Source: an uncultured Clostridia bacterium
GTDB taxonomy: Bacteria; Bacillota; Clostridia; TANB77; CAG-508
NCBI GenBank assembly: GCA_948934525.1
Contig: CAQZSK010000001.1
Span: 222,574 to 286,573 of the forward strand
DNA: 64,000 nucleotides
Direction of reading: 5' to 3'
The notes under the pieces: model-generated
What the model saw: the letters and a program-made list of their open reading frames with translations, nothing else
What the model was told of the DNA's origin: nothing
Database searches by the model: none
Shown here: piece after piece, positions 6,401-59,884 of the stretch
Layout of the letters: each line of letters starts with the position of its first letter
Numbering within the stretch: the first letter of the stretch is position 1
Program-made: the position numbers and the translations under genes

Positions 6401-7084
6401 CTATTTTACAGATTTTCTTCTTTGCATAATCATAATGGTAATTAAAATAAATACTGCTGCAAATGATACAAGTCTTACTACCTCTTGAATAGAGATAACA
6501 CCTGCTGGGAATTTTTGATAACTACTCATTAAATCAATAATTTCAAATCCTTCACCAAAGTTTGGCAAAAACCAAGGTATTACTAAAAATACAATGGTAA
6601 TAATGGCTGAAATCACTTGGTTTTCTGTAATACTTGATGCAAACATTCCAAGAGAAATAGCTGCAATAGAAAGTAATAAAAATCCTAATATCATAACTAA
6701 CACTGGTACTATATTTGGTGCTTGGAAAAAGCATAAAATCACATAATACATAAGTGAAATAACAAGTGTAATAACAATTAGGGCAACTGCTGCTAAAAAT
6801 TTTCCAAATACAATTCCTGTAATGCTTTTAGGAGATGTTAATAATAATTGCTCTGTTCCGTTTTTTCGCTCTTCCGCAAACATTCTCATTGTAATAATTG
6901 GGACAATTACTAAAAGTCCATATCTTGCAGTATTAAAATATAAATTTCCCATATCAATAGCTCTTTGATAAATAGTTGTTAAATAGAAAAATAAGCTGAA
7001 TACTAATAAGAATAGACCTATTGCCACATATCCTATTGGAGATAAGAAATAGCTTTTTAATTCTTTTTTAAATACGGCTAACAT
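6401..7084 (-). CDS. ABC-2 type transporter permease (GldF-like)
   Basis: 227 aa with 6 predicted TM helices. Its start overlaps the stop of the ATPase gene (7084). Confidence 0.7.
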   Translation of the reverse strand: MLAVFKKELKSYFLSPIGYVAIGLFLLVFSLFFYLTTIYQRAIDMGNLYFNTARYGLLVIVPIITMRMFAEERKNGTEQLLLTSPKSITGIVFGKFLAAVALIVITLVISLMYYVILCFFQAPNIVPVLVMILGFLLLSIAAISLGMFASSITENQVISAIITIVFLVIPWFLPNFGEGFEIIDLMSSYQKFPAGVISIQEVVRLVSFAAVFILITIMIMQRRKSVK

Positions 7085-8148
7085 TATTTATCTCCTCCTT
7101 TTTTCTTATTTTCTTTTTTAATTTGTTTTTCTTTGGCTTTTTCCTCTTTCTTTTGTGCTTTTTCTGCTTTTATAGTTGCCTTATCCTTTACTTGTTTTTC
7201 TACTGTTTGACTACTAGTAGTATCAATTAATTTGATAAAGGCATCTTCTAAGGTCGATTCGCTTTTCTTTAATTCAAATATTGTAATTTCTTGTTTTGGT
7301 AATACTTCAAATAATTTTTTTCTTAAATCCATTTCCCCTGAAGAACTAATAGCATATTGCTTTGTTCCATCTTCATTATCTTTTAGGAATTTTATTTCAC
7401 TAATTTCAGTTACTTGTTCTTGTAGATTTTTCATATTTTCTTTTGGATCTTCTACTGTTACTAAGATAGTATTTTTCTCTTTTGTTTTATTTTCTAAATT
7501 CTCAGGAGTATCTATTGCCACAATTTTTCCATGATTAATGATTACAACTCTTTCACAAATTTGGCTTACTTCTGATAAGATATGGCTACTTAAAATAACA
7601 GTATGTTTTTTTCCTAGTTCTTTTATCAAGGTTCTAATTTCTGTGATTTGTTTTGGATCTAATCCAACTGTTGGTTCATCTAAAATAATAACCGCTGGAT
7701 CGCCAACTAAAGCTCCTGCCATACTAACTCTTTGTTTATATCCTCTTGATAAATTACGAATTATTTTATTTTGTACACCTTCTAATCCAACTTCACTAAG
7801 AATTCTTTTTACCATTTCTTTTTTCTGTTTTGATTTTACACTTTTTAACTCTGCCATATAGTTTACAAACTCTTTAACTGTTAGTTCCGTATATAAAGGA
7901 GTACCTTCTGGCATATAGCCAATTTGCTTTTTTGCTTTTTTAGGCTTTTTTGCTATATCAAAACCATTTACAATAATTTGTCCTTCTGTTGGTTCGATAA
8001 AGCCTGTAATCATATTCATAGTGGTACTTTTACCAGCACCATTTGGTCCTAAAAATCCAACAACTTCGCCATCTTTTACTTCAAAATTGATGTGATCTAC
8101 AGCTGTGATATTAGGATACTTTTTTGTGACATTTTTAATTTCTATCAC
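7084..8148 (-). CDS. ABC transporter ATP-binding protein
   Basis: Walker A GPNGAGKST, signature LSRGYKQR, Walker B ILDEPTVGLD. Lys/Glu-rich C-terminal tail. Confidence 0.9.
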   Translation of the reverse strand: MIEIKNVTKKYPNITAVDHINFEVKDGEVVGFLGPNGAGKSTTMNMITGFIEPTEGQIIVNGFDIAKKPKKAKKQIGYMPEGTPLYTELTVKEFVNYMAELKSVKSKQKKEMVKRILSEVGLEGVQNKIIRNLSRGYKQRVSMAGALVGDPAVIILDEPTVGLDPKQITEIRTLIKELGKKHTVILSSHILSEVSQICERVVIINHGKIVAIDTPENLENKTKEKNTILVTVEDPKENMKNLQEQVTEISEIKFLKDNEDGTKQYAISSSGEMDLRKKLFEVLPKQEITIFELKKSESTLEDAFIKLIDTTSSQTVEKQVKDKATIKAEKAQKKEEKAKEKQIKKENKKKGGDK

Positions 8149-9313: not shown

Positions 9314-10237
9314 TTATTCAAAATATTTGCTTAAGTCTATTTTATTATCTGCTTGTTTCCAAACCACTCTATTTTTTCCACTTTTTAAAGTCTCTTTAGT
9401 CGCTTCTATATCAAATACATAAATTCCTCTAAATCGATACATCATAAAACCTGTTTCATCTTTATATTTTGGAAATAGAATTCTTATTTCTTCAGAATGC
9501 CATTTTATCATATCTTTCACAAATCCAATTGGGTCATCTATTCTATATTCAAAAATATATTTTTTGTCACTTGTAATAGTATTAATATACGGATTATTTT
9601 TAAATTCATTTTGGCTACTTTCTTCTAATTGTAGCTTAGGGCAACAAACATGTTCATTTGGATATCCTGTTTTAAAATATATTTTCTGATTTGCTTTATA
9701 CCCTTTGTTAAACAACTCTGAAACTTCTTGTACTGTTCTAAACTGAACATTATCTTCAGTAGATATGTTTTGTTGTTTAATATAATATTCAGGTGTTCTA
9801 TTTTCATTCGTCCAAGGCTTAAATCTATCACCTAATTTTTCAATTCGATTATTAATAACATTAATAATTTCATCAATTTGTGTATGAATTTCCTCTATAC
9901 TTTTTGTCACATCTATTCTTAATACTTCTGGTTCAAAAGAAAGTATTTCACTTAAAGAATTAATTTCCTTTTCTATAGATTTCGTTCTCTCTATATCATC
10001 TTTCCTATTCCATTCCTTCTGGTGTTGCCATTCATCTACTTCAACTACTAGCTTAATTTGTGGAAAATACAAATCAGCTAATGCTATTCTTCCATTTTCT
10101 CTTTTAAATAATTGTTGCGTAATAATTTGTACATCCAGCCTATTTAATAAATTATAGATTCTGGTAATACAATAGTTCTCATATTTCTTTCCAAAGGATT
10201 TTTTCAATTGATTTGTAATATATTCTTTTTTATCCAC
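9314..10237 (-). CDS. PvuRts1I/AbaSI-like modification-dependent (5hmC/glucosyl-5hmC) type IV restriction endonuclease
   Basis: 307 aa. The N-terminal block KKYENYCITRIYNLL...ALADLYFPQIKLVVEVDEWQH and the C-terminal MYRFRGIYVFD match my recollection of the PvuRts1I family (Vsr-like nuclease plus SRA-like domain) and its ~300-aa size. Confidence 0.6.
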   Translation of the reverse strand: MDKKEYITNQLKKSFGKKYENYCITRIYNLLNRLDVQIITQQLFKRENGRIALADLYFPQIKLVVEVDEWQHQKEWNRKDDIERTKSIEKEINSLSEILSFEPEVLRIDVTKSIEEIHTQIDEIINVINNRIEKLGDRFKPWTNENRTPEYYIKQQNISTEDNVQFRTVQEVSELFNKGYKANQKIYFKTGYPNEHVCCPKLQLEESSQNEFKNNPYINTITSDKKYIFEYRIDDPIGFVKDMIKWHSEEIRILFPKYKDETGFMMYRFRGIYVFDIEATKETLKSGKNRVVWKQADNKIDLSKYFE

Positions 10238-10269
10238 TTTTTCTAGCTCCTTTTTTCTGATAGCCTAAT

Positions 10270-10977
10270 CTATATTTCTTCTTTTATCAAATCTCTAATA
10301 AAAACTTGGTTTCCTTCTCTATCCTTTGTTCGTAAATTAGGAAAGGTCTTTTTCATTCTAGTATCTGTAAAATATTCCTCTTCTATTTTTCTCATAAATG
10401 GAATTTGAGAATATTTCATTTCTTCTTGATAAAATTGGCATATTGCTCGTTTTTCATAAGTACTAACTGCCCAAACAGTTACTAGAGCATCTACTGCTAA
10501 AAATAAAAACATTGCCATTTCAGTAGAAGCTTTGATTTTTAAATTAATTCTTTCAATTACTTTATCTATTAATGGTTTTATGAGCTTCATAAGCCCAATG
10601 GCTAATATTCCCCAAAACAAAGAATAAATAATGCATATTCTACCATTAATATCTCCTTTTGCGTAAGAATAATCCCAAAATCTGGCACCATAAATTGCTT
10701 CTAGTCCATAGCTTAACATATATTCTACTGCTGCTCCTGTTAGAGCTCCATAGAAAAATAGTTTGAAATAACTTTTTTGATTCACATGATTTAAGAAAAA
10801 GATAAGAAAAATAGCTCCTACTCCATAAACGGGACAAAAAGGTCCCCAAATAAGACCCTTTCTACTTTCCCAAATTCCCATGGTAAAATATCCATAGAAT
10901 GTTTCTATGATTAAGCCTAAAATACTAAATAATATAAAATACCAAAATAATTGATGAATATTAATTTTTGATTTCAT
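10270..10977 (-). CDS. polytopic membrane protein (PF06541-like 'putative ABC-transporter type IV')
   Basis: 235 aa. N-terminus FWYFILFSILGLIIETFYG...WGPFCPVYGVGA resembles that family. Confidence 0.5.
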   Translation of the reverse strand: MKSKINIHQLFWYFILFSILGLIIETFYGYFTMGIWESRKGLIWGPFCPVYGVGAIFLIFFLNHVNQKSYFKLFFYGALTGAAVEYMLSYGLEAIYGARFWDYSYAKGDINGRICIIYSLFWGILAIGLMKLIKPLIDKVIERINLKIKASTEMAMFLFLAVDALVTVWAVSTYEKRAICQFYQEEMKYSQIPFMRKIEEEYFTDTRMKKTFPNLRTKDREGNQVFIRDLIKEEI

Positions 10978-29578: not shown

Positions 29579-31054
29579 TTAACCTGCTAACCTTTCTTCT
29601 GGCCTAATATCTTGTATCTTTAATAATTTTATCTTTCCAAAATACATATCACTTTCATTTATAAGTTGTTTTAATGTTTCTTCACCATTTTGTTTTATAT
29701 ATAATTTAATCATCTCATTTTTCTTTCTTTCTCCTGTAATATGTATATAATATTTTCTTGTTGTTTCAAAATCTGAATGTCCCATAATGACATGAAGTAC
29801 TTCTGGTGGCATACCGAAAGTTGAGCACAATGTTGCAAATGAGTGTCTTAATCCATATACTGTTAAATGTTCTAAGTTATATTTTTTTATGAAATATGGC
29901 ATTTTCCTAGTTAAATCCTGTGGAACAAAAGGATTTCCCTTTTCATTTAAGAAAATATAGTCATTTTCGTCCCATACTTTTCCTAATTTTTTGTATTCTT
30001 CCATTCTTTCAGCTTTTATCATCAGTAATAGCCTTTTTAATCTAGGGTGCATTGGTATATCTCTATAACTTTCAGGAGTTTTTAATTCACCATCGCCTCT
30101 TTTATGCCCTATTTTTTCCATGTTGTCGTCATAGATTTCCCAATCTTTATAAGCATTATGTATGTGAACAATATCATTTTCATAATCCATCGAAGTCCAT
30201 TTAAAACCGCATCCCTCTTCTGGCCTTGCTCCTGTTAATAATATCGTTTCATACAAATATGACGCTTGTCTTTTATCTTTTTCAAATATATCAAGCCATA
30301 CTTCTTGTCTATCTTGCTCTAAATGTTCAATCTCAATTCCCAATGACTTTTTATCATTATAAATTTCAATCTTTTCTGCTGGATTGTCTTTCCTTAGTTT
30401 TTCTTTTATAACTACATCAAAAGACATTTTTAAAACAAGCTTAATATCTTTTAAATACTTAGTTGAACAATCTAATGTTTCAAGTTTATCTTCAATTTCT
30501 TCTTGCGTAATAGTAATTGCATTCATTTCACCAAAAATTGGAATTACTTGTGCATCTGCCACTCCTTTATAAAAAGTAACTGTTTTTGGACTTAATTTCT
30601 TTTTCTTTCGTGTCCCCTTTTTCTCAGACTGCCTCTTTTTTTGCTTTAACATTTTTTGCACAAATGCATATATAGATTCTTTTCCTATTTTGTATTCTTT
30701 TTGTTTTGATTTTTGGTTTAATTGTAGCTGATTTTTCTTAATGCAATCCATATATTCGTCAAATTTTTCCAATTCTGCCTGACATTCTGGACTAAAAACT
30801 TGCCTATTGGCTAACTGATAGTTTTTTTGCACCTCTATATAAGTTAATAAAATCGCTTCTGCTAATCTTTTTTTTGCTATTTCTTCTGTACTACCATATC
30901 TACTTAATCTTGGATTTGATACTCCTGCAATATTTAATTGTAGAGTAACTCGAGCCTCCTTTCCATTTTTTTTATTTCTTACATGTACCTGCCCTTTCTT
31001 GCCATATTCCGTTTCCTTTTCCATTTTTGTTTTAGCAGTTTTTACCCTTTCCAT
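29579..31054 (-). CDS. tyrosine recombinase/integrase
   Basis: 491 aa. C-terminal GLRHSFATLCSTFGMPPEVLHVIMGHSDFETTRKYYIH. It starts 29 nt from the tRNA-Arg(ACG) 3' end. Confidence 0.85.
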   Translation of the reverse strand: MERVKTAKTKMEKETEYGKKGQVHVRNKKNGKEARVTLQLNIAGVSNPRLSRYGSTEEIAKKRLAEAILLTYIEVQKNYQLANRQVFSPECQAELEKFDEYMDCIKKNQLQLNQKSKQKEYKIGKESIYAFVQKMLKQKKRQSEKKGTRKKKKLSPKTVTFYKGVADAQVIPIFGEMNAITITQEEIEDKLETLDCSTKYLKDIKLVLKMSFDVVIKEKLRKDNPAEKIEIYNDKKSLGIEIEHLEQDRQEVWLDIFEKDKRQASYLYETILLTGARPEEGCGFKWTSMDYENDIVHIHNAYKDWEIYDDNMEKIGHKRGDGELKTPESYRDIPMHPRLKRLLLMIKAERMEEYKKLGKVWDENDYIFLNEKGNPFVPQDLTRKMPYFIKKYNLEHLTVYGLRHSFATLCSTFGMPPEVLHVIMGHSDFETTRKYYIHITGERKKNEMIKLYIKQNGEETLKQLINESDMYFGKIKLLKIQDIRPEERLAG

Positions 31055-53882: not shown

Positions 53883-54708
53883 AGCAATTACCTCCGATAA
53901 TTCTCATTAAATAGCCATAAATCAGCTTTTTATCTTCCTTTATTTCAGATATTCGTACTAGGACAGTATCAAGATAGTGTGGATAATTATTAAACCTTGC
54001 TGGAACTCTTGCAAGGCAAGTAACCTTCGTATTATCTAATTGAACTATAATACCAGAATTATTTTTTGGAAATGCAATTACTTTTCCAGTATATTCGCCA
54101 CCTTCAGTAGTAAACTTTCTAATATTTTTATATGGATTTTCTAAAAAGTCTTTGCTACTTAGTTCATATATACCTTTTTGAATATCGATGGCTTTAATTC
54201 TTACTTTTAGATATCCTCCTGGAGAATATAATTCTTTACAATTTGTTATATAGGTATGTTGTAAATTCTCCGCTTTGATAATTACTTCTTTTCCATACAA
54301 TTCTACTACTATATGTTTTGTACTTACTGCTAAAATTCGTACTCTTACAGTGTCATTTACCTGTAGTCCTGGCAATTCTAATTCTGCTCGTAGTTGCATT
54401 GCGTCTTTTCTACTTGCAATTACTATATTAGAAATTTCGTCTATTTCTATTACTATAAAATCAATTTCTGCACCTAGTACCCCTCTAATAACTGACTTAT
54501 TTTGCTTTTCTGTTCCTAAACCTAAATGTGTTATAGGTATCAGTATTTTCATATTGTTATACCATATAATAGCACAGGGAATACTCTCGTTTCTAACCTT
54601 GTAATATTCATTTTCTATTCCAGTAATTTTACCTGTTAATATTCTCTTTTCATCTCTACTTCTAATAAATTCTTTTATTACTAATTCTTCCAATGATTTC
54701 ACCTCCAC
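53872..54708 (-). CDS. multi-S1 (OB-fold) RNA-binding domain protein
   Basis: Repeated S1-like blocks (ILTGKITGIENEYYKV..., VNDTVRVRILAVSTKHIVVEL, EYTGKVIAFPKNNSGIIVQL). The probable start is TTG 54693 (GGAGG 8 nt upstream). Confidence 0.55.
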   Translation of the reverse strand: MEVKSLEELVIKEFIRSRDEKRILTGKITGIENEYYKVRNESIPCAIIWYNNMKILIPITHLGLGTEKQNKSVIRGVLGAEIDFIVIEIDEISNIVIASRKDAMQLRAELELPGLQVNDTVRVRILAVSTKHIVVELYGKEVIIKAENLQHTYITNCKELYSPGGYLKVRIKAIDIQKGIYELSSKDFLENPYKNIRKFTTEGGEYTGKVIAFPKNNSGIIVQLDNTKVTCLARVPARFNNYPHYLDTVLVRISEIKEDKKLIYGYLMRIIGGNCYGR

Positions 54709-54711
54709 TAA

Positions 54712-54744
54712 AAAAGCACCTACCTTTTAAGGTAAATGCTATAT
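54712..54744 (-). terminator. rho-independent terminator, copy A of a duplicated 33-bp sequence
   Basis: GCACCTACC-TTTTAA-GGTAAATGC with a U-run on the minus strand. Identical apart from 2 loop bases to 57411-57443. Confidence 0.6.
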
Positions 54745-54766
54745 TCCATAATATTCTTCTAAAATA

Positions 54767-54800
54767 GGAAAGGCTACAGTTATCAAACTGTAGCCTTTCC
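54767..54800 (-). terminator. perfect 14-bp stem hairpin downstream of the GC-rich gene
   Basis: GGAAAGGCTACAGT-TATCAA-ACTGTAGCCTTTCC. Confidence 0.5.
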
Positions 54801-54833
54801 TCCTCAATAATCATATAGATAACTATTGAAGGC

Positions 54834-54848
54834 GGAAACTAGAGGTCT
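54834..54848. repeat. 15-bp perfect inverted repeat, left copy
   Basis: GGAAACTAGAGGTCT. Its exact reverse complement is at 55476-55490. Confidence 0.85.
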
Positions 54849-54885
54849 AAACTAATTAGTTACTTTGAAAAATGATATTGCTGGA

Positions 54886-55452
54886 TTACGTCAGAGAATA
54901 GTAGTACCTTATAAAGCAAGTCCGACTCGCCTGAAAACGTCCTGTGTCGCTAAGGATTCTAAAGAAAATCTGAACCTTTTGCCCCTTAGTGACATTTGTC
55001 TCTACCGTATCGCCATGCTTATCAACTTGCCATTGGGTCGGCGAATGTCCGTTGGCATATCGATTATTTTCCGCCAGAACCTTTCCTGTCGATGCATTCT
55101 TGATTTGCGTAACCACATATCCTGTTCCAGACTTAAAAGAAAAGAATGTATAGATCATAAGTCGACCAGATTTTCCCATAGTCTTCACAGGCGTCAGGTT
55201 GTTGCCAAGCATCTCAAACTCACCGACATAGGTATAGTTGGAACTGCTCCAAGTGGCATTTCCGTCGGCGCCCAGTGGCATTGCACTGGCATCGATTTCA
55301 GCCACATAGGCCTGTTCTTCCTCGTCCCAAACGGCCACTCCGCTACCGAAAGTTTCCTCATCGGCAAGAGTGGGGGCAGCCGCGAAAGCTGCTGTGGTCA
55401 TACCCATGCACATGGCAACCGCCATAAGCATTGCTAAAAACCGTTTACGCAT
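54886..55452 (-). CDS. secreted ~188-aa beta-rich protein, compositionally foreign (about 50% GC)
   Basis: ATG 55452 with an AAAGGAGA SD 7 nt upstream. Signal peptide MRKRFLAMLMAVAMCMGMTTAAFAAAP. Two hand-counted 60-nt lines gave 47% and 58% GC. No family recognised. Confidence 0.6.
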   Translation of the reverse strand: MRKRFLAMLMAVAMCMGMTTAAFAAAPTLADEETFGSGVAVWDEEEQAYVAEIDASAMPLGADGNATWSSSNYTYVGEFEMLGNNLTPVKTMGKSGRLMIYTFFSFKSGTGYVVTQIKNASTGKVLAENNRYANGHSPTQWQVDKHGDTVETNVTKGQKVQIFFRILSDTGRFQASRTCFIRYYYSLT

Positions 55453-55475
55453 TATATAGTCTCCTTTCATATCAA

Positions 55476-55490
55476 AGACCTCTAGTTTCC
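55476..55490. repeat. 15-bp perfect inverted repeat, right copy
   Basis: AGACCTCTAGTTTCC, located between the promoter and the SD of the GC-rich gene. Confidence 0.85.
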
Positions 55491-55515
55491 TGTGTAAAAA
55501 ATTTACACGTCTTAT

Positions 55516-55544
55516 ATTATAATGCGTTTTTCTTCCATTGTCAA
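55516..55544 (-). promoter_or_regulatory. consensus sigma-A promoter reading into the IR-bounded cassette
   Basis: On the minus strand: TTGACA (55544-55539), 17 nt, TATAAT (55521-55516). Confidence 0.55.
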
Positions 55545-55600
55545 TATTAACTTTGTAATTTCTTGTAAATATTTATATTTTTTTATATAATATGTTATTT

Positions 55601-56758
55601 TTATTTATTATTTGACATAAAGTAAAGTGGATTTCCTCCAATTATCTCTCCTGTCGTTGCATCAATATAATATGTGTAGTATTCATCATAAATATTAGTA
55701 TTGCTATTAGACTGATTTAGAGTATCATATTCTATTGTTACCATCCATACTTTTCTAATACGACTATCTGTACGATAAATTATGGTATTATTTAAAGAGT
55801 AATTCTTTGAATGTCTTTCTTGATAATACTGGTCATAATCCACTTTCCTTGCATAGGCATCACCATTCATCTTAGCAATGTCTAAATTAGAATGGATGCT
55901 CTTGACATTGTATCCAGTATTAATTTGTTGCTCTGCATCTACTGCAATCTTTTCAGCTTGCTCTTTAGATACTTCAATTGAATTATTATCATATTCTTCA
56001 TCTTTGAATATAAAATAGTATATTTCGTTTATTTCAGGTATAAATCCTATTTTTATTGTCTCATATGGATTTACTATTTCATCATATTTTTTACTAAAAT
56101 CGGCATACCAAATATATGCCTCTTTCTCAGATACTAGATTAGAACTTATTTCAACTTCCGAATATTTTTTTGATGAATAGCCATATTTTTCACATAATTC
56201 TTTTGCTACTGTTGTTGCTTTCTCTTCTGTCGTCCTGTAATTATCAATATCTTTAGCTAATACACTTTCAAAAAATACAGAAAAAGACTTCCCTTTTTGT
56301 GCTTCAAATTCAACAAAACTTCCATTAGTAGTTTCAATATGCCATATTAATTCATAATTGTTTGGATTATTATCTAGTTCAATTAACTTTATTACTTCAT
56401 TATTATGTCCAAATTTCTTTAATAATTCCTTAGCCCTTAATTCTGCATCATTTTTAGACATTGCTCTTGCTTTTTCTATTTCTGTAACTCTGTTTTTCTC
56501 ATTATTTTCTTCTGCATAAAAACCAATTACTTTTTCTGGCTCTTTCCATATATTATTGGTTAATATTGTTCCAGCATACACAATTCCTGTAGTCACTAAT
56601 AAACTTACACAAGCTGTTATTGCTATCTTTGGAAATGAATAATAAATTGCTTTTTTTCTTTCTTTTTGTAATTCTTCTTTAATAACTTTTTCTAGTTTGC
56701 TAGGAACTTCTATATCTAAAGCTAAATCATGATATAACTTTTTATCTAGTTCATCCAT
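55601..56758 (-). CDS. anti-sigma factor-like membrane protein with PepSY-like repeats
   Basis: Short cytoplasmic N-terminus, one TM and three repeats of a (A/E)xxxAKELxxKYGY-type module. The start lies 3 nt after the sigma gene stop. Confidence 0.5.
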   Translation of the reverse strand: MDELDKKLYHDLALDIEVPSKLEKVIKEELQKERKKAIYYSFPKIAITACVSLLVTTGIVYAGTILTNNIWKEPEKVIGFYAEENNEKNRVTEIEKARAMSKNDAELRAKELLKKFGHNNEVIKLIELDNNPNNYELIWHIETTNGSFVEFEAQKGKSFSVFFESVLAKDIDNYRTTEEKATTVAKELCEKYGYSSKKYSEVEISSNLVSEKEAYIWYADFSKKYDEIVNPYETIKIGFIPEINEIYYFIFKDEEYDNNSIEVSKEQAEKIAVDAEQQINTGYNVKSIHSNLDIAKMNGDAYARKVDYDQYYQERHSKNYSLNNTIIYRTDSRIRKVWMVTIEYDTLNQSNSNTNIYDEYYTYYIDATTGEIIGGNPLYFMSNNK

Positions 56759-57410: not shown

Positions 57411-57443
57411 AAAAGCACCTACCTTTTTTGGTAAATGCTATAT
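57411..57443 (-). terminator. rho-independent terminator, copy B of the duplicated 33-bp sequence
   Basis: GCACCTACC-TTTTTT-GGTAAATGC downstream of ORF 57481-58074. Confidence 0.6.
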
Positions 57444-58123: not shown

Positions 58124-59884
58124 TTAAAAATTATCCCAACTAATTTTTTCCTTTTTGATCACTTTTTCGCTTTTCTTTTCTTGGATTGTTATTTGCTTTG
58201 GATTATTTTTAATCCATTTTGGGTTATATCGTGAAATTGGACTGTCTTGTAATTTTATTGCAAGTGGGTGTTCTTTGTATATCATTTTATCCAGTAGTAT
58301 TGGCTTATTTCCACGCAAACTTAGCATTAACTTAGTAATTGGTAGCCTTAGTATCTCATCTACATTCATTAAATTTCGTTCTAATGTTGATATGTTCTTT
58401 TGTCCATATTCTTCCAAATCTCCCTCTAGTGAATTTGATTTTCGTATTGAACTAGTTTCAGCAGTTGCGACACCTAGAAGGTTACAAAAATATTGTGCGG
58501 TTAAGATATCTGTTGTAGACATATTCATTCGTTCGTCGCAATTTCCTATTATTTCATCAGATAAACCGGTTCGGATAACGATTCTCAAATTGACCGTATA
58601 TTTTGTAAAATTATAATTAGTGAAATTCCGTCTACTACGAACAGTACTAATCTTTCTGTTAAAGTCAGGAATTTGACCGAATATTTGCAAATTCATCCAG
58701 GAAAAAATATACTTCATTTTCACATTTTCCATTTTCTCTTGTATCAGCATACCTTACAAGTTTTATGAACAGGAAGGTATAGAATAGTGAGGCTATAAAA
58801 TCGAAGGATGCGTTCATATCACTTGTTATGACATAATAAATACAAGCCTCTTTTCCTGGTAGTGTCAAATCGATATCCGTTTCATTAGTTATTTTTTGTA
58901 AATCTTCATTTTGAAACATCTGTAATCTAGTTCCTAAGCCTGTGATAACACTTGCTTTTATTGTATCACTTCCTGAAGCAAATATATTATAGCTCATTTT
59001 TGCTGGACTATTTGATGGCATCTTTTTAAACATTTCGTCTAATTCTGTAATATCTCCATTAGCAATATTTTGATAGACATTAGTCAAATTATTATTGTCA
59101 GAAATATTTTCTAAAAAGTAAAATTCAAATGCTTTTAACAGATTTTCTTCAGCACGAGGCCAAAACTCATCACTACCATTATTATGCCTTTGTGTATTTG
59201 AGATAATAACATTTGCACTAGTCTGAACATCAGTAATATCTTCATTTTCTTTTAGCGGATTCCAACGGTCACTATGTCGCATATCCTTTAAGTTTAGAAC
59301 TTTGACTGTATATCCAATACTTCTAAAATAACTAGAAGTAATGCGATAAATCTCTCCGCTTTGGATCAGTTACTACCATTGATTTTTTGTACTTTGAAAG
59401 TTCTAGTAAATTAGTAATTAAAAAGCCTATTGTTTTCATACTTCCGGCTACTTCCAAAAACACATATATTTTTATTGAAGTACGATTGAAAAGGTAACTT
59501 AACAATATTTCCATTGTATTTTCCTAATATGATACCTGGTACTTCGTTAAAGCCTAATATTTTTTGCATTTCTTTTTCAGTCATCCAGTTTGCAGTTCCA
59601 TAAGTTCCATCTTCCGTCTTAAAATTAATTCCCTTATTTTGCTCTTGTTTTTTGAAAAAGACAAGTAATATGTCTAATATAATTAAAACGGAAATAATGG
59701 CAATTATGAGGCAAATTAGCATATATAAATTATTAGTTATAATAATATTTCTTCCAAAGCATTTTTCTAATACCTCAATATAATTTTTCACATTAAAGTC
59801 AAGCACAACATTTAAAATAAAACAAAAAAATAAAAAGATATAAAAAATTATCTTCTTAGGCATAGTAAATTCTCTCTTTCTCAA
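58124..59884 (-). pseudogene. VirD4/TraG-type type IV coupling protein, multiply frameshifted
   Basis: Four overlapping ORF pieces. They carry an N-terminal double TM, a degenerate Walker A (GSMKT..VVTDPK), Walker B FFLDEFANI, then IPDFNRKISTVRSR, IIGNCD and LRGNKPILLDKMIYKEHP. Confidence 0.75.

Follow-up and report, generated by a model that had tools for sequence, protein, structure and literature searches.

Complementary leader and trailer segments of a secreted-protein gene on conjugative elements of gut Clostridia: a probable long-range mRNA helix

To our knowledge, few interactions between the untranslated regions (UTRs) at the 5' and 3' ends of a bacterial mRNA have been proven, the main ones being those of hbs, icaR and the type I toxin mRNAs. 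Here we describe a further candidate, a gene for a 188-aa secreted protein lying in a 64,000-nucleotide stretch of DNA from an uncultured Clostridia bacterium (contig CAQZSK010000001.1, positions 222,574 to 286,573; this whole stretch is called the window). The gene is bracketed by two 15-nt arms, each the exact reverse complement of the other, and these arms very probably pair in the transcript as a long-range RNA helix. Taking helix and role together, we think it probable that a 15-bp duplex of the 5' UTR with the 3' UTR of a monocistronic mRNA acts in the protection of its ends.

The closest proven case is the hbs mRNA of Bacillus subtilis, in which a 14-nt segment following a 5' hairpin pairs with its full complement before the terminator (PMC5737220). 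Disruption of the 5' arm raises cleavage of the leader by RNase Y, disruption of the 3' arm speeds decay, and compensatory changes restore the wild type (PMC5737220). In the icaR mRNA of Staphylococcus aureus, the 3' UTR pairs with the Shine-Dalgarno sequence (SD), blocks initiation and recruits RNase III (PMC3868564). In hok and other type I toxin mRNAs (the tac/fbi fold-back) a helix between the 5' end and the 3' end closes the full-length mRNA, which thereby becomes very stable (PMC9841398; for aapA1, PMC5416894). Features of their own in this last group are the small membrane toxins they encode, a closed form that is untranslatable, activation by 3' trimming, and an antisense RNA. The fold-back helix of the hok family, like the one described here, was reportedly first supported by covariation.

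The unit in the window resembles hbs in several respects: both belong to Firmicutes, both have an arm of 14-15 nt with a full complement, a 5' hairpin upstream, a terminator downstream and a free SD, and both surround a short gene that is strongly expressed (in the present case, presumably so). It differs in that the gene belongs to a conjugative element and its product is a secreted beta-sandwich protein, where hbs encodes a nucleoid protein, in having an extra hairpin between the 3' arm and the terminator, and in the kind of support available, which is experimental proof for hbs and, here, phylogenetic covariation within a protein family. Unlike that of icaR, the SD is not included in the pairing. 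The type I toxin mRNAs share with the present unit a location on mobile elements and an mRNA closed by a helix of its 5' and 3' ends; unlike hok, the unit shows no evident sequestration of the SD, which is unpaired in the consensus structure, and its product is a 188-aa secreted beta-sandwich protein. A hok-like type I toxin-antitoxin mRNA was rejected on these grounds. Nor was an antisense partner seen, although no search aimed at one was made.

Layout of the unit in the window

An earlier reading of this DNA from its letters alone (the original prediction) had reported perfect 15-bp inverted repeats around the gene, an SD and a GC-rich open reading frame (ORF) between them, and a perfect TTGACA-17-TATAAT promoter just outside the right repeat. 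All of these are confirmed. The arms are exact (GGAAACTAGAGGTCT at 54834-54848 and its reverse complement at 55476-55490), and these two copies are the only ones in the window even when up to 2 mismatches are tolerated (chance expectation, 0.12 matches). The gene has a GC content of 0.41-0.59 against 0.19-0.33 in its flanks, and at third codon positions (GC3) the ORF reaches 0.49 against 0.16-0.25 in four neighboring genes. In the direction of transcription, the unit reads as follows:

55516..55544, minus strand: sigma-A-type promoter TTGACA-17-TATAAT, matched by the scan at 12 of 12 positions, with a predicted start at about 55508-55511
55492..55508, minus strand: 7-bp 5'-terminal hairpin GUGUAAA-UUU-UUUACAC, ending 1 nt before the 5' arm and present in both the minimum free energy and the centroid fold
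55476..55490, minus strand: 5' arm GGAAACUAGAGGUCU, with 8 nt between its end and the SD and 23 nt between its end and the AUG
55461..55467, minus strand: SD AAAGGAG (55467-55461), read from the sequence, outside the helix and kept in the leader/trailer alignment
54886..55452, minus strand: ORF of 188 aa (ATG at 55452, stop at 54886), protein start MRKRFLAMLMAVAMCMGMTTAAFAAAP (MRKRF...), without a Pfam match
54850..54861, minus strand: 12-nt palindrome AACUAAUUAGUU, directly 5' of the 3' arm and found in most of the loci called class 1 below
54834..54848, minus strand: 3' arm AGACCUCUAGUUUCC, starting 37 nt past the stop codon
54802..54831, minus strand: 13-bp hairpin with 3 sense-strand G.U pairs, 2 nt after the 3' arm
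54760..54800, minus strand: intrinsic terminator with a 16-bp stem (GGAAAGGCUACAGUUU/AACUGUAGCCUUUCC) followed by UAUUUUA, from the repeat search and the mRNA fold
54705..54740, minus strand: second terminator-like hairpin with a U run, just before the next gene

The 5' hairpin, the 13-bp hairpin past the 3' arm and the two terminators are additions to the original prediction. Because the promoter lies outside one arm and the terminators lie outside the other, both arms fall in the 5' and 3' UTRs of a single predicted transcription unit. When the full predicted mRNA (757 nt) is folded, the minimum free energy and centroid structures alike show 5' hairpin, closing helix, 3' hairpin and terminator (z = -7.2). 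A scan between the end of the upstream gene (55601) and the promoter detected no terminator. An Rfam search returned nothing at or above the gathering score, the best result being a trpB motif placed on the terminators with 32 bits against a required 59.

A helix of this kind is not a common property of genes in the window. When the 100 nt upstream of each of 72 genes is compared with the 100 nt downstream, the perfect 15-bp helix is unique, and other genes reach 10 bp at most; in a control of 600 non-cognate pairs of upstream and downstream segments, no helix exceeds 12 bp. A null made from non-cognate pairings within the gene family proved to be contaminated by related arms, and was replaced by this window-wide scan together with the shuffle and slide controls given below.

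Some further observations concern the same few hundred nucleotides. The palindrome before the 3' arm (AACTAATTAGTT at 54850-54861) occurs at the same place in homologous loci L011, L017, L027, L031, L033, L035 and L041. It is kept in sequence rather than covarying, and with the preceding T/U it provides stops in all three frames; it may serve as a site for a protein or a nuclease, or as a barrier to ribosomes. Near-identical terminator hairpins (AGCATTTACCTTAAAAGGTAGGTGCT and AGCATTTACCAAAAAAGGTAGGTGCT) stand at 54715-54740 and 57414-57439 on the minus strand, 2.7 kb apart and behind different genes, as if a terminator module had been reused. A 190-aa ORF on the plus strand (54865-55437) runs antisense to the whole gene; it is unsupported, and most likely a by-product of the raised GC content.

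Homologous loci and covariation of the arms

Homologs were fetched at 49 loci (designated by L numbers), comprising the identical gene on 10 short contigs, an 89% variant on 6, variants at 31-51% identity, 8 loci from GTDB genomes and 11 from human gut metagenomes. Their hosts are uncultured low-GC Clostridia, including Clostridium sp. CAG:273. Helices were analyzed in 23 homologous loci with 18 distinct arm pairs, the most distant encoding proteins of about 30% identity. In 18 of the 23, the 5' leader and the 3' trailer are joined by 12-16 bp without interruption; a bulge or mismatch breaks it in the other five, where the longest unbroken run is 8-10 bp. The arm sequences themselves range between loci from identical to unrelated, as these pairs illustrate:

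Window and L011: GGAAACTAGAGGTCT/AGACCTCTAGTTTCC
L017: TGAAGTTAGAGGTCT/AGACCTCTAATTTCA
Second paralog in the L017 element: GAAACTAGAAACC/GGTTTCTAGTTTC
L033: GAAAGCTAGAAGTTC/GAACTTCTAGCTTTT
L040: GGAGACTGGAGAAACA/TGTTTCTCCAGTTTCC
L037, unrelated in sequence: TTACAAGGTCAGAAA/TTTCTGACCTTGTAA (also given as ACAAGGUCAGAAA/UUUCUGACCUUGU)

The surrounding layout is kept from locus to locus: the -10 element, about 7 nt, the 5' hairpin, 1-2 nt, the 5' arm, and the SD 8-20 nt farther on. In class 1, the distance from the end of the 5' arm to the AUG is 18-31 nt, and that from the stop codon to the 3' arm is 26-43 nt in most loci; in class 2 the 5' arm is 38-49 nt before the AUG, and the 3' arm is anywhere from 8 nt (L047-L049) to 58 nt (L037) past the stop. 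Every class-1 locus has a 5' hairpin at the same place but with another sequence (for example, AUGUGCA/UGCACAU in L017). The class-1 3' arm is followed by a hairpin and then, downstream, by a terminator; this hairpin is present in all 13 class-1 loci, with differing sequences, and class 2 lacks it. The 5' arms are purine-rich and SD-like, the 3' arms pyrimidine-rich. The conjugative element of L017 carries two paralogs of the secreted-protein gene (6636-7178 and 10001-10504), whose products are about 33% and 51% identical to the window protein, and each comes with its own promoter, 5' hairpin, differing closing helix, post-arm hairpin and terminator.

Covariation was evaluated on an alignment of 13 "mini-mRNAs", each consisting of leader plus trailer. 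RNAalifold predicts this helix and nothing else, with compensatory double changes in 10 of 14 pairs, and leaves the SD unpaired in the consensus. With the 15-pair helix imposed, 10 of its pairs change on both sides, 91.3% of pairing cells are satisfied versus 74.9% in shuffled alignments, and none of 500 shuffles reaches the observed value. Cells changed on both sides number 38, against 11.5 expected, and sliding the partner by 1-3 columns drops the pairing to 33-59%. Since complementarity is all that the arms have in common, with no shared recognition sequence, they point to base pairing rather than to the site of a recombinase or transposase.

Whether the arms act as RNA or as DNA can be approached through mismatches, because a G.U pair of the opposite strand would look like A.C on this one. 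The non-Watson-Crick pairs in the core helices are sense-strand G.U (L017a, L031, L040, L038/L048, and two in L047), and A.C is absent. This count is confined to core helices, as extensions made by Smith-Waterman alignment and RNAduplex added spurious pairs, A.C among them. Across the 13 class-1 loci, a total of 23 G.U pairs occur in the hairpin past the 3' arm, which is much more stable in the sense strand (summed energy, -128 kcal/mol) than in the antisense strand (-84).

Set beside an interaction of the hbs type, the family offers three of its properties. Complementary segments are placed in the 5' and 3' UTRs of one transcript by the predicted promoter and terminators; selection on their pairing is seen in the covariation and in the shuffled and slid controls; and the G.U bias and hairpin energies, from a modest number of independent events, indicate action at the level of the sense-strand RNA. 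The helix is conserved through covariation, holds a fixed place in the transcript architecture and is biased toward one strand. A pairing of 5' UTR with 3' UTR in the mRNA had been listed as an alternative in the original prediction, and it is this alternative that recurrence, covariation, strand bias and fixed spacing support.

Role of the helix and competing explanations

The proposed mechanism is as follows. Transcription would start at the consensus sigma-A-type promoter, almost directly with the small hairpin, and the 5' arm would follow 1 nt later. The ORF would form a loop of about 630 nt between the paired arms, and with the 3' arm, the further hairpin and the terminator, both transcript ends would be buried in a compact multi-helix module. 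The SD and start codon would remain free, with the helix outside the footprints of the initiating and terminating ribosomes. Such a module may shield the mRNA from 3' exonucleases as well as from attack that depends on the 5' end or is endonucleolytic (in Firmicutes, by RNase J1 and RNase Y). The result would be a stable, strongly expressed message for a secreted beta-sandwich protein resembling carbohydrate-binding modules (CBMs), a presumed partner of a pair made up of an extracytoplasmic function (ECF) sigma factor and a PepSY membrane protein on conjugative elements of low-GC gut Clostridia. Together, the consensus promoter, the strong SD and the 5'-terminal hairpin read as a design for a message that is stable and highly expressed. 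We infer both the extent of the transcript, with this promoter and these terminators as its limits, and the role of the helix, which we take to be stabilizing and not repressive or a matter of processing.

Two explanations place the function of the arms in DNA. The original prediction proposed an ON/OFF switch, in which the 657-bp segment between the arms would be flipped by a site-specific recombinase, leaving the gene uncoupled from the promoter outside. What suggests this is that the gene, itself promoterless, is enclosed by perfect inverted repeats with a promoter just beyond them, and that some short contigs end at or near the arm edges (L007 ending at 54834, L003 starting at 55474, L001 starting at 55492). 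The repeats of known invertons are recognized by a dedicated recombinase, both orientations are seen, and usually it is a promoter or leader that is inverted. The arms resemble those of the cwpV and flagellar switches of Clostridioides difficile and of the Bacteroides promoter invertons in being short inverted repeats beside a promoter, and they do flank a segment; they differ in that promoter or leader inversion, a dedicated recombinase and dual orientation are lacking here, as is a conserved recognition site accompanied by an invertase. Seven contigs with the identical gene, from different samples, cover at least one arm boundary (L002, L004-L006, L008-L010), each of them collinear with the window; the 89% variant has the present orientation in all six of its contigs (L011-L016); and the more distant homologs fetched all have the gene in this orientation to the promoter. 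The inverted orientation is found in no contig, although these are assemblies, which report the majority orientation, so that the power to detect a rare inversion is limited. Arm sequence varies freely between loci while complementarity alone is kept, the mismatches are sense-strand G.U only, and the terminator beyond the other arm makes this a complete transcription unit. No invertase gene adjoins the gene (its neighbors encode ECF sigma, PepSY-like, S1-like and DUF5697 proteins), and the sole recombinase in the scanned part of the window is a tyrosine integrase at 29579-31054, about 24 kb away. With one orientation throughout, variable arms and no adjacent invertase, the switch is left without support and we consider it most improbable. 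The other explanation makes the segment a mobile cassette, small and non-autonomous, that has 15-bp terminal inverted repeats and depends on mobilization in trans; it would account for the GC content and for a peculiar junction, yet it too has very little probability. The junction is in contig L001, from the Logan collection (run ERR13927391; 1-1829), which contains window positions 55492-54833 at 100% identity, starting 2 nt before the 5' arm. There the repeat-to-repeat segment gives way to unrelated DNA right at the edge of the 3' arm, 1 nt past it; beyond lies the middle of the gene for phosphoribosylformylglycinamidine synthase (purL), 88% identical to Paramuribaculum (Muribaculaceae). In favor of mobility there is also the ORF's GC3 of 0.49 in a host at about 0.2. 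This raised GC is, however, family-wide, with ORFs at 0.34-0.48 in hosts at 0.22-0.28 (GC3, 0.17-0.52), and it may owe something to selection acting on the mRNA or to an old exchange of alleles. Target-site duplication is absent (flanks, ...GAAGGC and TGTGTA...), as is a transposase; the promoter and 5' hairpin, which lie beyond the arm, are kept parts of the unit, and the two L017 paralogs have different arms within one element. Between the window and its 89%-identical relative L011, identity is about 90% within the arms and beyond them alike; as it shows no step at the arms, the gene is not a recent insertion. The suggestion in the original prediction that the repeats are the footprint of the delivery of a foreign gene fails on the same uniform identity and on the membership of promoter and hairpin in the unit. 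Nor did the arms turn up around different cargo elsewhere, a check that it had proposed: exact scans for the conserved 3' motif ACTRATTAGTTTAGACCTCTA gave 0 matches, and so no other context, in each of three collections (GTDB genomes, JGI metagenomes and IMG/VR), and positions 54700-55650 have no DNA match in PLSDB plasmids or INPHARED phages. L001 is thus the single exception in a locus that otherwise lacks the marks of a terminal-inverted-repeat transposable element. It is a single contig from a read-level assembly, in which a Bacteroidota housekeeping gene is interrupted by a Firmicutes-style unit, and it is probably a chimera. A search for the native locus of its purL gave at best this 88% relative, and a literature search for the run found no match.

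Other explanations accept the RNA helix and assign it another function. The same helix might be a site of processing or decay, a stalk of 5' and 3' segments cut by RNase III or another double-strand-specific nuclease, either to trim read-through from the sigma/PepSY genes to a defined mRNA (compare the rRNA processing stalks) or to down-regulate the message (compare icaR). The hairpins 1-2 nt off each end of the helix could stack on it into a longer, quasi-continuous helix, and RNase III acts on the duplex of the icaR 5' and 3' UTRs (PMC3868564). The scan from the upstream gene to the promoter showed no terminator, and the limits of L001 fall at the helix base, as if a discrete RNA or DNA species ended there. 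Against a nuclease site, 15 bp is short for a classical RNase III substrate, the SD is outside the helix (in icaR it is not), and the perfect promoter, strong SD and 5'-terminal hairpin suggest high expression; on balance we think this, the main rival, unlikely. We give still less credence to a helix that closes the mRNA so as to release terminating ribosomes near the SD ("closed loop" re-initiation) or that adjusts initiation by way of a standby site. The arms of almost all loci sit just outside the ribosome footprints, so that the helix can persist during translation, and the purine-rich, SD-like 5' arms with their pyrimidine-rich 3' partners would suit such a role; the class-2 distances differ, however (38-49 nt before the AUG and 8-58 nt past the stop), and we know of no bacterial precedent for closed-loop re-initiation. 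A closed-loop or standby role could coexist with stabilization. A bolder idea, which we regard as doubtful, is that helix and hairpins define a discrete RNA ending at the helix base (through processing or trimming), or else a closed-loop mRNA that couples termination to re-initiation. If so, the discrete RNA would be abundant and end-defined enough to show itself as contig ends and as the chimeric junction of L001, and gut Clostridia would have, on their conjugative elements, an "expression cassette" in the form of an RNA architecture that is both conserved and transferable.

Several points weigh against a helix that stabilizes the message. The promoter, start site and terminators are predictions. 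The excess of G.U over A.C comes from only about 5-7 partly related events, and is supportive rather than decisive; paired protein-binding sites would give covariation of the arms as well. With stackable hairpins on both sides, the perfect 15-bp duplex could instead be cut by RNase III and so reduce expression, in the manner of icaR. L001, in which unrelated DNA adjoins the helix-bounded segment, is the one result at odds with this picture and hints at an event at the helix base; its limits there could mean a discrete RNA or DNA species ending at that point.

Three more candidates were tried and rejected. An ECF-type promoter inside the arm (GGAAAC...GGTCT) has a spacing of just 4 nt. An integron attC site or HUH-type single-stranded DNA hairpin would have the whole gene as its "loop", and neither an integrase nor an HUH gene is adjacent. 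A BioBrick or other synthetic scar is contradicted by sequence mismatch and by the presence of the unit, kept, in many natural samples.

Gene product, neighborhood and significance

The secreted protein belongs to a family with at least 118 unnamed members. The original prediction of a signal-peptide protein of unknown family is borne out: the 188-aa sequence has no match in Pfam, and a profile search against PDB sequences gave nothing significant. An AlphaFold2 model (built with 49 family sequences) places a signal peptide and then a disordered linker ahead of a predicted beta-sandwich at residues of about 65-188, with a predicted local distance difference test (pLDDT) score above 90 there and a mean of 78.7. 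A Foldseek search of this model against PDB finds CBM6-like and porphyran-binding CBMs and collagen-binding domains, at E-values of about 1e-4 and template-modeling (TM) scores of 0.3-0.5. The likeness of the modeled protein to carbohydrate-binding modules is one of fold only.

In nearly all loci the gene is adjoined by genes for a 174-aa sigma factor of the ECF type and a PepSY-like membrane protein of 385 aa, located here as follows and found likewise in L011, L017 and L032-L049:

55601-57285, minus strand: ECF sigma factor and PepSY-like neighbors

The secreted-protein gene is co-directional with this pair in some loci and convergent with it in others. The genes for the secreted protein, the ECF sigma factor and the PepSY protein are a conserved three-gene module on conjugative elements. 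Genes of such an element in the window encode a coupling protein, PcfJ/PcfK, ArdC, SSB, a SpaA-domain surface protein and the tyrosine integrase, while the surroundings of L017 include serine recombinases. The type IV coupling protein (TraG/VirD4-like; 58124-59884, minus strand) is split over at least two overlapping ORFs (58124-58750 and 58665-59282), which may reflect a frameshift or pseudogene, or a sequencing error.

The locus has a bearing on inverton-calling pipelines, as perfect inverted repeats around a promoter-adjacent gene need not mean phase variation. The compact module of 5' hairpin, closing helix, 3' hairpin and terminator might be reusable for expression in Firmicutes. The unit would add to a sparsely populated kind of mRNA a clear new case, one with covariation across a whole protein family, from uncultured gut Clostridia.

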